NCBI GenBank assembly: GCA_934149005.1
Contig: CAKPDN010000001.1
Coordinates: 71,128 to 135,127 of the forward strand
Source of the DNA: an uncultured Clostridia bacterium
GTDB lineage: Bacteria > Bacillota > Clostridia > TANB77 > CAG-508
Reading direction: 5' to 3'
DNA: 64,000 nt
The notes beneath the pieces are model-generated. The model was not told the DNA's origin. It did no database searches and was given only the letters and a program-made list of their open reading frames with translations. The position numbers and the translations under genes are program-made. Shown here piece by piece: positions 30,841-45,361 of this stretch. Positions within the stretch are counted from its first letter, which is position 1, and each line of letters starts with the position of its first letter.

Positions 30841-31045
30841 GTTCTTGCTTAATTATTTTTAATTTTAACACCATCCTTTCATTTGGATGATTTTTATATT
30901 GTTTTTAGACAACAAAAAAATCAACCAGATTTATTTTCTGATTGATTTTTTTGTATCTAGCTGTTTTATTAGTTTGAACAGATACGTCATTGGTGCGGAT
31001 GAAGGGACTCGAACCCCCACGCCGTTGGCACTGGTTCCTAAGACC
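30841..31045. repeat. 203-bp direct repeat (left copy) containing the 3' 55 nt of tRNA-Leu plus its 3' flank
   Basis: About 88% identical to 45130-45334. 30991-31045 matches the tRNA-Leu 3' end through the anticodon stem, then diverges. Confidence 0.8.
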
Positions 31046-31853
31046 GCTAGATTATGTATTTTATAGTTTTTTTTATTATTTTTTAGTGTTGTTTAATCTA
31101 CTGAAATCCATTGAAATTTAAAGTTTTATAAAGAATTTGCTATAACATTATTGTATATTTTAGATTTTATATAAATTTGTCAATAGATTAGACATTTTTT
31201 GAATAACAGTAGTCCACTATTAATAATTAAGTTTTACTAATATATTTTTTGTATCATAAATTAATTATACATTTATTTTGTTTTATACATATTATCATAT
31301 AAATGTAATATTCATTAAGTAGTTTTTTGTAAGTTCATTTATAGTAAAAATAGTTATATTTTCAATTTTTATATTATCTATAACAAATTATACTATCATT
31401 ATCTAAAAATTCCCCAGTTAAGCCATTAAGTAACCAATCTAATTTACTTTTATATTAATTTTATTCTGTACGAGCCTTTTAGAACGATTTTTATTTTTTA
31501 ACCATATAATTTTCATTACTATTCCAAAAACATTCGCTCACGTGTATCGTCGTTTGTTCGGCATACCTTAAATGCTTTTATTATTCTCTATATTATGCTA
31601 TTTTAATATACTTACAAGCAAATTAAAAGCTTAACGCAAAACTTTATGCAAATAAAATAAAACTCTAAAACTAGAATTTTATCAAATCTAAAACTCAGTA
31701 TTTGCAAGTGTTTTAGGAAATACATTTTTATTATATAAGCAAAAATAAGCCATTTTAATTATTAGATGAGAATTTATCATCTTTTATATTAAATCGGCTT
31801 ATTTTTGATGTTCTACTAAAGATAAAAATACTTAATAATGTCTTTATATTCAA

Positions 31854-32951
31854 TTATTGTAAAGGTTTCTCCTTATACTGTTCTATCCAATAAGTATAAT
31901 ATGGATTGTCCCAAGTTGTTCCATCATAATATGTTACATCTTTCACAATAGCAATCACCTTTGATATTCCGTGAGCTGAATCTAACTTCCAACCATAATT
32001 TTTGCCACCAGTTGCACCTGCAACTACATTTACATTATCTGCTTGTCCTGTAAATTCAAATCCTCCACCATTGTAGTTAAATTGAGGCTTTATTTTTAGT
32101 GGATAATTATTATTATCATAAGCTAAAACTGCTACATTGTAATCCTTAATTGTTTTATTAGAATTATTTTTTATTACAACTTCTATCATATCTGGATACA
32201 ATGATTTATATCTATCATCTTGTACTAGGATTTTTGCACTTTCAACAGTTACTTCTTGTTCATTCTTATATTTTTCGATTTCTTGTTCCTTAGCTTTATC
32301 TTTTATTTGATTGCTTTTTTCTGTGATTTTGGTATCATTGCTTATAACCTCTTGTAAATCTTTAATCTTTTGATTAGCTGTTACATAGTCATTGTTTGAA
32401 ATTAAAGAATCTACTTCTGCTAAAGTTTTGTCCTTTAAATTTTCCTTGTTGTTCTTAATATAATCTTGTGCAACTTTGTAATTATTTTTGTCTAACTCTA
32501 TTACTTTAGAATAATTTTTTATAGCTTCTAATATATTTTCTTCTTTTTCATATTTTTGTCCCTCAACAAAACTATCTTTTGAAGATTTTACATTTTCAAT
32601 ATCATCTTTAGCCGATTTTATACTGTTTTCAAATTCCTTTATATTAGAATATCTATTAATTTCTTCTATTGTATTATCATAATCTTTTGAACCATTTACA
32701 AATGATTCTACAAGATACTTTAATTTGTCTTGAAAAATTTTTTCGATTTTCTTTTTTTCATCATAACTTTGTGTAGTGCTATATATTTCTTGTAATTTTG
32801 AAACATCTACATTATCAAGGTTTTGTTTAAATTTCACAACCGGATTATTCAAATACTTTAAAAATGCTATTATAATAACAATTATAATGATTCCAACTAT
32901 ACCTAGAACAATTTTTTTATTGTCTTTAATATTTATTTTTTTATCTTCCAT
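31854..32951 (-). CDS. hypothetical membrane-anchored protein (coiled-coil plus C-terminal beta-rich domain)
   Basis: N-terminal TM anchor, Lys/Glu-rich coiled-coil, conserved-looking C-terminal domain. Confidence 0.4.
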   Translation of the reverse strand: MEDKKINIKDNKKIVLGIVGIIIIVIIIAFLKYLNNPVVKFKQNLDNVDVSKLQEIYSTTQSYDEKKKIEKIFQDKLKYLVESFVNGSKDYDNTIEEINRYSNIKEFENSIKSAKDDIENVKSSKDSFVEGQKYEKEENILEAIKNYSKVIELDKNNYKVAQDYIKNNKENLKDKTLAEVDSLISNNDYVTANQKIKDLQEVISNDTKITEKSNQIKDKAKEQEIEKYKNEQEVTVESAKILVQDDRYKSLYPDMIEVVIKNNSNKTIKDYNVAVLAYDNNNYPLKIKPQFNYNGGGFEFTGQADNVNVVAGATGGKNYGWKLDSAHGISKVIAIVKDVTYYDGTTWDNPYYTYWIEQYKEKPLQ

Positions 32952-32965
32952 ATATTACATCCCCT

Positions 32966-33601
32966 TTAAATTTTATTTATAATATTGTTATAATTTACGT
33001 CATTATATACAGTTGCCTTTTCCCAAGTTTCATTTATTGAATTTGTCAAACCATCAAAAATTACTTTTACAAAGTCTTTGCCTAAATTTATACCACCATT
33101 ATTTACTGTTGTATTTTCCATTTGTTCTAAGCTATCTGCATAATCACTTTCTACAAATGTGCAACCAACTATTTCTCCATTTTTAGTTACAAATATTCTT
33201 CTTATTGTTTCTTGATTTTTCCCTATTGTTTCCATATCGAATAAATATATTGTTTCTCCCTGTTCGTTTGTTGTTTTCCTAGCCTCATATATTTTTTTAC
33301 AAAAGTCTTTTAATGATGTTGGCTCTGCTGGTTTTGCAATTTCTGTATAATCTGTTGTATTTGCATTTTCTTTTGTTTCTGGATTTTGTAATTTGTTATT
33401 TACATTTATCAATTCTGCAAGTAATTCCTTTTCATTATCATTCAATGTTATTTCTTCTGCTATCGTTAGGGATTTTTTATTATTTTCTGTCGTTCCCCTG
33501 TAAAAACACATAAAATATAACACTGCTATTATTGCCAATATCACTATTAATGACAATATAATTTTTTTAGTTTTCTTTTCCATATTAATTTTTCCTTTCA
33601 A
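32966..33601 (-). CDS. hypothetical membrane-anchored protein
   Basis: N-terminal TM helix. 14-bp gap to the upstream gene suggests an operon. Confidence 0.4.
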   Translation of the reverse strand: MKGKINMEKKTKKIILSLIVILAIIAVLYFMCFYRGTTENNKKSLTIAEEITLNDNEKELLAELINVNNKLQNPETKENANTTDYTEIAKPAEPTSLKDFCKKIYEARKTTNEQGETIYLFDMETIGKNQETIRRIFVTKNGEIVGCTFVESDYADSLEQMENTTVNNGGINLGKDFVKVIFDGLTNSINETWEKATVYNDVNYNNIINKI

Positions 33602-43165: not shown

Positions 43166-43279
43166 TAATTTTTATATTGAATTTTTAGTTTGAAATATGG
43201 TATATTATAAACACTACTTGAAATGTAATAACTATAATTTTATATCGTATTTCAAGCTGTCAAAAGAAAGGAGTAAATA

Positions 43280-44938
43280 ATGAAACAGCTAGAAAGCGAT
43301 AAAATAACTGCTTTATACTGTCGTTTATCAAGAGATGATGAACTATCAGGAGAAAGCAATAGTATAAAAAATCAAAAATCAATTTTAAGTAAATATGCAC
43401 AAGATAACAATTTTCAAAATATTAAGTTCTTTGTAGATGATGGATATTCTGGAATAACTTTTACAAGACCTGCTTTTATGGAAATAATGGAACTTGCTGA
43501 ACAAGGCAAAATCGGAACTATTATTGTAAAAGACCATTCAAGACTTGGTAGAAATAGACTTGTTGTAGGACAACTTCTTGAAGAAGATTTTGTAAGATTA
43601 AACATTAGATATATTGCTATAATGGACAACATTGATAGTAGCAAAGGTTTAAATGACTTCTTACCTATTCAAGACTGGTTTAATGAAATGCATGCTAAAA
43701 ATACAAGTCAAAAAGTTAGAGCAGTTCTTAAAAGTAAAGGCGAATCTGGAATTTCACTTGCTAACAATGTACCCTATGGCTATAAAAAAGATGAGAACGA
43801 TAAAACAAAATGGATAGTAGATGAAACATCTTCTGAAATTGTAAAAGAAATATTTAATCTATTTATTCAAGGACATGGAACTTGTGAGATTGCCAGAATT
43901 TTAAGAGAAAGAAAAATATTAACTCCATCAGAATATAATGCAAGTATTAGTACAAACTCAAATACTAAATATCAATATAAATGGTGTGGAACTACTGTGG
44001 CTGGTATTTTGGATAGACAAGAATATATTGGAGATACAATAAATTTTAAATCTACTACTCGTTCTTATAAAGATAAAACAAAAGTAAGACTTCCAAAGGA
44101 AGATAGAAAAATATTTAAAAATACCCACGAGCCAATTATTGATGAATATACTTGGAATATTGCAAAGCAATTAAGAAATAATAGAAAAAAGCCTACTAGG
44201 TCAGGTAAGAAAAGTATTTTTTCAGGACTACTATTTTGCAATGATTGTGGTAAAAAAATGTACTTTCAATCACCTGTAACAGATTTAAAAGCTAAAGACC
44301 ATTACAGATGTTCAAGTTATAAGCATGATACTTCTCTATGCTCATCTCACTATATTTCAGATGAAGTATTACAAGTTATTGTTTTAGAGAATATTCAAAG
44401 AGTAATTTCATATGTAAAAAGCTATGAAGATTTATTTATTCAAGAACAACTTGCAAAATCTACACAAGATGAGTTAAAGCATATTTCTAAAAACAAGAAA
44501 GAACTTGAACAAGCAAAGAAAAGAATAATTGAAATTGATAACTTATTTATGCACATTTACGAGGATAATATATCTGGAAAGCTAACAGATGAAAGATTTA
44601 GAAATTTATCTTTTAATTATGATAAAGAACAAAAAGAATTAAAAACAAAAATTGAACAATTATCAAAGGAAATAAACAATACTGAAAAGAAAACAACTGA
44701 CTTAACACAGTTTATATCTAATGTTAAGAAATATACTGAAATAACTGAACTAACACCAGAGATACTAAATGAGTTAATAGAAAAGATACTAATTCATCAA
44801 GCAGAAAAAGTTGATGGTAAAAAAGTTCAAGAAATAGATATATATTACAGAGGTGTTGGCATAATTTCTTTTCCAGTTAGTTTAGAAGATATGACAATGG
44901 TAATTGAAAAAATGATAAATAAAAGAATATCAGCTTAA
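43280..44938 (+). CDS. large serine recombinase (TnpX/TndX-like)
   Basis: N-terminal resolvase catalytic domain [11 protein letters not shown]...[17 protein letters not shown], recombinase domain, CxxC...C zinc ribbon and coiled-coil. 552 aa. Confidence 0.85.
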
Positions 44939-45129
44939 ACAAGCTATTTTATGGGAGAATATTTTAGTGTACTTAACTAAAGCGTTCTCCCCTATGAGTT
45001 ATGACATACTATCATAACTCGGTGGCTCTGCGAGGCTAATTCAATTTACCTTAATTGGTAAATTGAATGCACAAACATCTGATTAAATTTATTTTTACAA
45101 AATAAATCTATCATCTATTTTTGAAGTAG

Positions 45130-45334
45130 TTCTTGTTTAATTATCTTCATTTTTAGCACCATCCTTTCATTAGGATGATTTTAATATTGTTTTTAAGCAA
45201 CAAAAAAATCAACCAGATTTTATTTACTGATTGATTTTCATATCGATCTGTTCTATTAGTTCGAACAGAAACGTCATTGGTGCGGATGAAGGGACTCGAA
45301 CCCCCACGCCGTTGGCACTGGTTCCTAAGACCAG
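45130..45334. repeat. 203-bp direct repeat (right copy) overlapping the 3' end and downstream flank of intact tRNA-Leu
   Basis: About 88% identical to 30841-31045. Confidence 0.8.
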
Positions 45335-45361
45335 CGCGTCTACCAGTTCCGCCACATCCGC
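45278..45361 (-). tRNA. tRNA-Leu (anticodon TAG), type II with long variable arm, CCA encoded
   Basis: Minus-strand sequence GCGGATGTGGCGGAACTGGTAGACGCGCTGGTCTTAGGAACCAGTGCCAACGGCGTGGGGGTTCGAGTCCCTTCATCCGCACCA folds as a cloverleaf. Anticodon loop CTTAGGA. Confidence 0.9.

Follow-up and report, generated by a model that had tools for sequence, protein, structure and literature searches.

What a long direct repeat beside a tRNA gene records, one integration or several, is the question raised by a 64,000-nt stretch of DNA from an uncultured Clostridia bacterium (assembly GCA_934149005.1, contig CAKPDN010000001.1, positions 71,128 to 135,127), referred to below as the window. The single tRNA gene that ARAGORN finds in the whole window is a tRNA-Leu(tag) gene at 45278-45361 on the minus strand, and part of this gene recurs as a direct copy farther downstream. 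An earlier note on this DNA took the segment between the two copies, 30841-45361, for an island produced by site-specific integration into the tRNA 3' end. Our analysis indicates that the repeat is likely a compound junction, left by layered integrations at one tRNA gene, and that two of the integrated layers, integrative mobilizable elements (IMEs) named IME-L and IME-R here, were acquired independently and are defective. A third layer, the decayed island E2, lies between them (Table 1).

The two copies were aligned, as the earlier note had proposed, and were also recovered by a repeat finder (families D3 and D4); they are direct copies of ~208 bp each, at 30838-31045 and 45126-45332, in which the flank is less conserved than the tRNA part. 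The tRNA part (tRNA positions 30-84; 30991-31045 and 45278-45332) is identical at 55/55 positions, and a 28-mer taken from it occurs exactly twice, with 0 occurrences expected in shuffles, confirming that the window holds a direct partial copy of tRNA-Leu. The 3' flank, earlier described as ~145 bp of identical sequence, is in fact 86.8% identical between the left and right copies over 157 nt, with small indels. For the entire repeat, which is real, the estimate of ~88% over 203 bp gives way to 90.4% over 209 columns, measured through contigs L001 and L009, which match the right and left copies, respectively, at 100% identity in the part of the flank that was compared (loci and contigs used for comparison carry L numbers). 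Since the copies differ by 0% in the tRNA part and by 13% in the flank, the two parts have different histories. The earlier gene list for the segment (recombinases of two classes, two relaxases, an insertion sequence (IS), a regulator and cargo) proved correct by Pfam and NCBIfam profiles and tblastn.

The origin of the flank became apparent from a survey in which a 23-base pattern of the flank hairpin was searched against species-representative genomes, one genome per species. The pattern was found at 57 loci, nearly all in metagenome-assembled genomes (MAGs) of uncultured gut Clostridium or Clostridia. In 43/43 loci with an intact neighbouring gene the flank begins 0 nt after the CCA, and the occurrences cover ~50 species of uncultured gut Clostridia. 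The preceding genes are the transfer-messenger RNA (tmRNA) gene and genes of 12 tRNA species (Gly-tcc, Cys, Leu-tag/taa/caa/gag, Thr-cgt/ggt, Tyr, Arg-acg/tct and Met). Beyond the flank follow a 93-aa open reading frame (ORF; MKIIKQELEFEECLKQ...), a large serine recombinase (626-663 aa), an inverted-repeat region, a Mob_Pre relaxase and TnpV, so that a full family member reads, in order, tRNA-CCA, flank, 93-aa ORF, large serine recombinase, MobV relaxase, TnpV, cargo and a right end that we call D5. Because the same sequence follows 12 tRNA species and tmRNA and runs into a serine-recombinase/relaxase module, the flank is the left end of a mobile, often multi-copy element family and not DNA that belongs to tRNA-Leu. 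The complete member in L056 (~5.1 kb) has only four genes, the 93-aa ORF, serine recombinase, relaxase and TnpV, with the serine recombinase as its sole recombinase. Family recombinases that adjoin at least 8 different tRNAs share 87-94% protein identity, and the left end of L013 is 98.8-100% identical to those of L046 and L067, which come from different species-level MAGs and different junctions; in many cases a contig breaks 70-600 nt inside the element. The 93-aa ORF has no match in Pfam or NCBIfam; the top NCBIfam similarity of the recombinase is to CcrB, far under the cutoff, and its identity to the TnpX-like protein encoded in the window is only ~22%.

Within this family, the two flank copies of the window are separate IME lineages and not a duplication. 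The left copy is closest to a copy behind tRNA-Arg(tct) (L053, 95.0%; then L015, 93.8%), and the right copy is closest to one behind a tmRNA gene (L016, 93.6%). Among 56 foreign flank copies, the left copy has 17 that are nearer to it than its window partner, and the right copy has 38. The flank hairpin itself (CATCC..GGATG; 30872-30889 and 45160-45177) overlaps the ribosome-binding site and start codon of the 93-aa ORF. A solo flank of ~165 nt also follows tRNA-Leu(gag) in a contig labelled Streptococcus pasteurianus (L021, 3141-3400), where it ends ~4-5 family codons into the small ORF; the GC content there is ~37-39% before the tRNA and ~27% after it, which suggests either that a Clostridial element was transferred into a Streptococcus or that the contig is chimeric.

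The right end of the family is defined by a second repeat. An 83-nt pair at 28634-28716 and 35723-35805, 73% identical according to the repeat finder, is part of the D5 motif, which stands at the far end of family members in L004, L019, L020, L035, L042, L051 and L056 and occurs twice in the window (D5L and D5R). We had first taken this pair as a second attachment (att) pair of a tyrosine integrase, a reading that was dropped when the motif turned out to be the IME right end in other genomes. D5 terminates in ..AAAAGTTGTA(A/G)ATA(A/T)CTAC, ~8 variable bases and (G/C)C(A/T)CCA, a pseudo tRNA 3' end whose last bases are ..GCACCA, ..GCTCCA or ..ACACCA. In some cases a true acceptor strand is present, namely 12 nt of tRNA-Leu(taa) in L020 and 10 nt of tRNA-Tyr in L025. 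The two ends of an element share only ~C(A/T)CCA, ~5-6 nt, a core that fits a serine-recombinase crossover in or beside the CCA, and the family recombinase would be the enzyme that inserts these elements. We also considered a crossover in the T-loop or acceptor stem, which is hard to square with near-identical elements at different tRNAs and with homology that starts within CACCA. Beyond D5, a hairpin with a T-run is found in L035, L051 and L056, with host-like genes after it in L035 and L051; we read this hairpin as the tRNA's original terminator, displaced by the insertion. D5 also holds a promoter-like sequence that faces outward, TTGCAA..TATGATATAC (TTGCAA-N16-TATACT); if the element were circular, transcription from it would cross the junction and enter the flank, the 93-aa ORF and the recombinase, an arrangement reminiscent of the joint promoter of Tn4451. 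The Rfam search revealed no structured RNA in the flank or in D5. When metagenomes were scanned for the D5-to-flank junction (attP or tandem), a single contig of 2.7 kb came up, L068, in which D5, GGAGCCA and a short variant of the flank are present; in this structure a circle and a tandem array look alike.

With both ends of the family in hand, the window can be read downstream from the tRNA as tRNA-Leu(TAG), IME-R (45277-35684), E2 (35683-31046), the 55-nt tRNA fragment (31045-30991), IME-L (30990-28594) and the chromosome. Both IMEs have a left end that starts after the CCA and a D5 with pseudo-CCA; a MobV relaxase and an oriT-like repeat are present in IME-R only, the relaxase as a pseudogene, and are absent from IME-L. 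No remnant of the family's large serine recombinase was found anywhere in the window, and IME-L and IME-R are therefore non-autonomous, defective derivatives. In IME-L, the segment 30594-31018 shows homology to 55 loci at 85-94%, and its 93-aa ORF is full-length, with a frameshift at about codon 16, and is 87% identical to that of L013; the ABC (ATP-binding cassette) transporter then stands where intact members have the recombinase and relaxase. About 10 nt past the right end of IME-L, at 28572-28583, there is a second pseudo tRNA-Leu 3' end, ATCATCGCACCA followed by GACG, which is common to other strains and resembles the tRNA-Leu(tag) acceptor end minus one base; it may be an older junction scar. 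In IME-R, family homology of the flank is confined to 45126-45280, and the 93-aa ORF is cut at 45126, after ~9 family codons. The IME-R relaxase is 81% identical to that of L013 in two frames, with a frameshift at ~38686 and an in-frame stop at 38418, and family homology ends at 38923 in every locus compared. The histidine-phosphatase gene of IME-R has 36% GC in a locus of ~25% GC, and His_Phos_1 is also cargo of the tRNA-Leu island of L002.

E2 is an ordinary member of the tyrosine-integrase kind. Its Phage_integrase-family gene lies at the tRNA-proximal end, oriented and spaced as in relatives: the fragment is 46% identical to integrases that follow tRNA-Leu genes in L002 (after 104 nt) and L018 (after 0-4 nt), and its stop at 35573 is 110 nt from the D5R pseudo-CCA. 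A terminator hairpin lies beside this end of E2. The 55-nt tRNA copy at the other end can be explained as the scar of an E2 integration that would have taken place at the anticodon loop. Fragments of tRNA-Leu from the anticodon loop to the CCA stand directly before the flank in four more loci (L033, L056, L065 and L067), and in L056 an IME lies between the tRNA-Leu end and the 3' end of a tyrosine-integrase gene, the same order as in the window.

Contigs from other samples place the tract among strains. They are collinear with the window only up to a point at or close to the inner edge of D5L, where L004 diverges at 28715 and L005 and L006 end at 28671; the strain-variable tract is thus 28594-45277 and reaches 2.2 kb further left than 30841-45361. 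In a second sample, the chromosome-side contig L004 has the same D5L followed by different, family-typical cargo (Bro-N and others, as in L035 and L042), and contigs L009, L070 and L007 tile 30687-45275 by window coordinates. No exact end overlaps were found among the ERZ27287018 contigs L001, L004, L007 and L009.

The comparisons show the architecture, the boundaries of the elements and the family with its siting at CCA ends; from them we infer the following order of events. IME-L would have inserted at the CCA of tRNA-Leu. The E2 tyrosine integrase would then have crossed over at the anticodon loop, supplying a new 3' half of the tRNA and displacing the old 55 nt together with IME-L, and the CCA of the rebuilt tRNA would next have received IME-R, which came to lie between this gene and the integrase end of E2. 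Decay would have followed, with loss of the IME-R recombinase and conversion of the relaxase and the integrase into pseudogenes; later, a Tn4451-family transposon would have entered the oriT-like repeat of IME-R, and an IS200 the transposon. Because of this layered history, the "203-bp repeat" would consist of the 55-nt att core of E2 and the homologous left ends of two different IMEs. The only recombinases in the window that look intact are the TnpX-like protein of the transposon and the IS200 transposase, so the 14.3-kb tract would be movable only by enzymes supplied in trans. Alternatively, the tract could be lost by homologous recombination between the repeats, and a mosaic third variant of the flank, described below, hints at such exchange.

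Other histories were weighed against this one. The account in the earlier note, a single 14.5-kb island formed by one integration at the tRNA-Leu 3' end, with att sites of ~203 bp whose copies have since diverged by 12%, draws on the intact tRNA that stands at one end, the direct partial copy that stands opposite and the recombinase genes in between. We regard it as very improbable. The flank is common to elements at 12 tRNA species and tmRNA, the tRNA part and the flank diverge by 0% and 13%, the left copy runs into a 93-aa ORF that the right copy is without, and two internal D5 right ends divide the tract; moreover, no integrase adjoins the tRNA, beside which an IME flank and a transposon are found instead, the nearest tyrosine-integrase fragment being 9.7 kb away. 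What stands of that account is the site-specific integration into a tRNA 3' end, as a hotspot with a 55-nt integration scar; the single island with 203-bp att sites does not, its bounds are replaced by those of the strain-variable tract, and no recombinase lies where a single island needs one. Nor does the 12% divergence speak for an old event, as had been suggested, since the copies come from different lineages and each is closer to foreign copies than to its partner. The note's own alternative, tandem or accretive insertions at one hotspot, has been borne out by the three stacked elements. The flank might instead be a native terminator or leader cassette of the tRNA genes of this clade, its left copy having arisen by local duplication or unequal crossing-over, and two hairpins do lie in it, one that follows the tRNA and has a T-run, the other, likewise terminator-like, on the opposite strand. 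This is the least probable of the accounts considered here: the flank is always joined to the same ORF/recombinase/relaxase module or its deletion derivatives, copies at different tRNAs in separate species-level MAGs reach 100% identity, it breaks assemblies, and past the D5 end of L035, L051 and L056 stands a terminator-like hairpin.

A variant of the layered history deserves more weight, although we consider it rather unlikely. E2 and IME-R may have arrived together: IME-R would have sat behind an E2-bearing tRNA-Leu in an earlier host, and a circle of the 55-nt core, IME-R and E2, excised by the E2 integrase, would have entered the IME-L-bearing tRNA-Leu. Joint arrival yields exactly the observed structure, the transfer of accreted composites is documented for tandems of integrative conjugative elements (ICEs) and IMEs (PMC5704250), and two further samples (L070 and L071) have the E2/IME-R junction at 100% identity. 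Against it, the E2 integrase is now a pseudogene, and a joint transfer must predate that decay; nothing separates joint arrival from sequential insertion.

Several observations count against the sequential, layered history that we prefer. Many or most of the comparison loci are MAG contigs and could be chimeric. The ABC transporter of IME-L has no nucleotide match in any related locus and is unique to the window, and IME-L could be two unrelated remnants that chance to adjoin. At the other IME, this history gives no account of the 89-nt linker (45037-45125), and the pseudo-acceptor of D5R, GTTCACACCA, matches tRNA-Leu in CACCA only, so that D5R itself does not show that IME-R entered at the present tRNA. 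In ERZ27287018, a third, mosaic variant of the flank adjoins the transposon: over 45073-45200 it equals the right copy, and beyond that it is in part like the left copy. It lies in a contig (L007) that ends at window position 45275; the tRNA-bearing contig L001 stops at window position 45073. These two features may stem from mixed strains, from exchange between the flank copies by recombination or from one more element, and they complicate a simple order of events. Finally, the earlier note had proposed a search for an empty tRNA-Leu site; look-ups with flank and island proteins yielded only short metagenome contigs of close relatives, which end at, or differ inside, the tract, and neither an empty site nor an excised circle was found. 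For this reason, the mobility of any layer is deduced from comparison only.

Table 1. Features of the tRNA-Leu(TAG) tract in window coordinates, from the distal to the tRNA-proximal end.
Feature	Coordinates	Strand	Basis
D5L, right end of IME-L, closing in ..CATTGGCACCA (final A 28594)	28594..28716	-	Repeat finder, family and strain comparison
ABC transporter with a frameshift in the Walker A motif (membrane domain 29359-30525, ATPase 28782-29357)	28782..30525	-	Pfam
IME-L left end: flank L (30990-30875), then 93-aa ORF (30874-30594)	30594..30990	-	Homology, tblastn, frame translations
3' portion of tRNA-Leu(TAG), displaced (positions 30-84, same sequence as the live gene); putative distal att scar of E2	30991..31045	-	Alignment, shuffles
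E2, decayed tyrosine-integrase island	31046..35683	-	Pfam; comparison with L002, L018
E2 DUF5780 protein	31854-32951	-	Pfam
E2 211-aa ORF	32966-33601	-	
E2 helix-turn-helix (HTH) regulator	33925-34260	+	Pfam
E2 integrase, split, 5'-truncated, pseudogene	34747-35573	+	Pfam
D5R, right end of IME-R, closing in pseudo tRNA 3' end ..TTCACACCA (final A 35684)	35684..35805	-	Repeat finder, family comparison
IME-R accessory and cargo genes	35806..37528	-	ORFs, Pfam, locus comparison
His_Phos_1 phosphatase, 36% GC	36048-36689	+	Pfam
76-aa ORF	36753-36983	-	
130-aa ORF, family-conserved	37136-37528	-	61% identity to 122-aa ORF of L035
IME-R oriT-like part B and Mob_Pre relaxase pseudogene (broken Mob_Pre 37476-38892)	37476..38923	-	tblastn with 479-aa relaxase of L013
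Tn4451-family mobilizable transposon, 6,065 bp, nested in IME-R	38924..44988	+	Pfam, NCBIfam; ends from uninterrupted target
TnpV	39036-39398	+	Pfam
IS200-family insertion in the transposon (tnpA 39536-40087)	39416..40171	-	Y1_Tnp (Pfam); transpos_IS200 (NCBIfam)
Membrane protein	40240-40839	-	
MobV/TnpZ relaxase (Mob_Pre), intact	41617-42912	+	Pfam
TnpW-like	42902-43165	+	Weak Pfam, 20.3 bits against a cutoff of 25
TnpX-like large serine recombinase (Resolvase, Recombinase, Zn_ribbon_recom, DUF4368)	43280-44938	+	Pfam
IME-R oriT-like inverted repeat, part A (GCAGAGCC..GAGTTATGA..TCATAACTCATAGGGG), split from part B by the transposon	44989..45036	-	Alignment with uninterrupted L013, L023
Linker, 89 nt, between truncated small ORF and oriT-like region, in place of the missing small ORF and IME serine recombinase	45037..45125	-	Locus comparison
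Right repeat copy: tRNA positions 30-84, then flank R (45277-45126), the IME-R left end	45126..45332	-	Alignment, repeat finder
tRNA-Leu(TAG), intact	45278..45361	-	ARAGORN; Rfam tRNA, 57.7 bits

The transposon nested in IME-R could be delimited exactly because its uninterrupted target, ..TCATAACTCATAGGGGGTTAGGACTTATGG.., is seen between recombinase and relaxase in L013 and L023, the window copy being split by 38924-44988. It resembles Tn4451/Tn4453 of Clostridium perfringens and C. difficile in its TnpX-type recombinase with DUF4368, MobV/Mob_Pre relaxase, TnpV, TnpW-like protein (a weak match), 22-bp imperfect terminal inverted repeats and 2-nt overlap, GG/CC at both junctions. The TnpX overlap is said to be GA, and the gene order of Tn4451 is reportedly tnpX-tnpV-cargo-tnpY-tnpZ-tnpW, relative to which the nested element is circularly permuted. 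The segment 38687-45068 is 100% identical to an independent metagenome contig (L007), with different DNA on both sides, and the right-hand junction with the oriT-like repeat is the same in L030 and L025. The IS200 is absent from the homologous transposon in L017; a match to its leader RNA (STnc490, 40054-40161) is below the Rfam threshold. Tn4451-like elements recur in members of the IME family, inserted at about codon 12 of the 93-aa ORF in L017 and L026; this recurrence could reflect a site preference or joint inheritance with the IME. A relative of the transposon with 77.7% nucleotide identity, the same gene order and aac(6')-Ie-aph(2'')-Ia as cargo is found on enterobacterial IncHI2 plasmids, namely L008 (Klebsiella pneumoniae pD610-HI2, NZ_MG288680.1) and four other enterobacterial plasmids, and since these are plasmids of Enterobacteriaceae, this transposon type crosses phyla.

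Outside the tract, the gene at 45459-47150 (-), next to the tRNA, contains eight tandem 45-nt units (45585-46079) that encode a KEDKKDETDKPSTSD repeat in a 563-aa predicted surface protein. Its ortholog in L001 is 466 aa long, although the surrounding DNA is 99.9% identical, and the repeat number therefore varies between strains; an exact-protein look-up of this gene, whose length varies through the 45-nt repeats, gave no match. The first 14 kb of the window are unusually AT-rich (~21-25% GC), and segments of the tRNA-Leu island of a related species (L002, 13194-16847) recur at window positions 1043-1539, 4812-4889 and 26184-26685 with 84-98% identity. There is probably further mobile DNA elsewhere in the window.

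The gene set of the IME family, a large serine recombinase, MobV and TnpV, is like that of Tn4451. Tn4451 has low target specificity (PMC5704250); unlike it, the IME family occurs without exception at the CCA of a tRNA or tmRNA. In surveys of Firmicute IMEs, tRNA 3' ends are the targets of tyrosine integrases, while serine-integrase IMEs are gene-disrupting or of low specificity (PMC5704250, PMC5357655), and the present family is neither. Closest in behaviour are the ssrA islands of Dehalococcoides, which are IMEs with a serine recombinase (DsiB, CcrB-like) at the 3' end of a tRNA-like gene, with tandem arrays, repeated 3'-end fragments and decayed members (PMC3146451). Those islands use one target gene, ssrA, with insertion in the T-loop, a 20-bp repeat and a second small serine recombinase (DsiA/DsiB; PMC3146451), whereas the IME family occupies 12 tRNA species and tmRNA, with a junction at the CCA, a core of ~5-6 nt and a single recombinase. 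The tycheposons of Prochlorococcus are cargo elements that form islands at seven tRNA/tmRNA genes and whose junctions carry partial tRNAs; 27/937 have a large serine recombinase, each tRNA has its own integrase clade, and the att lies ~40 nt inside the tRNA (bioRxiv 10.1101/2020.12.28.424599). In contrast, one recombinase clade (87-94% identity) is present at many tRNAs in the IME family, again with its junction at the CCA. E2, for its part, is like tyrosine-integrase IMEs and islands: the integrase lies at the tRNA-proximal end and reads out toward the tRNA, and the far end has a 3' tRNA fragment. The streptococcal family Tyr_1 has tRNA-Leu as its target, and elements commonly accrete in tandem with decayed ones (cis-mobilizable elements, CIMEs) (PMC5357655, PMC5704250). 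The E2 integrase differs in being split, 5'-truncated and only 46% identical to the nearest examples found here. The locus itself is an ordinary decayed hotspot, and what is unusual is the target choice of the family. A literature search gave no description of a serine-recombinase IME family at tRNA-CCA ends, which is not proof of absence; the family, whose members in gut Clostridia sit precisely where the CCA of many different tRNA genes ends, is apparently undescribed.

Long imperfect "att" repeats at tRNA genes can thus be compound, made up of the core of one integrase and the homologous ends of other elements, and island boundaries and ages that are read from such repeats can accordingly be wrong. 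As to how the family chooses its targets, we give an even chance to the idea that the large serine recombinases of a single clade detect what every tRNA and tmRNA 3' end has in common, a T-arm-like sequence with CCA, and carry out recombination inside the CCA or directly behind it. If this is true, a 5-kb mobilizable element could enter behind essentially any tRNA gene and leave the gene unharmed, the left arm of its attP would be a mimic of a tRNA 3' half, and the intact tRNA-side end would accept more copies, which would explain the tandem arrays. A serine-recombinase element that adjoins the CCA exactly, behind 12 tRNA species and tmRNA in ~50 species of gut Clostridia, would represent a different targeting logic, one that would build islands behind many tRNAs in an uncultured clade, and it would also offer a candidate recombinase with a conserved target present in many copies per genome.

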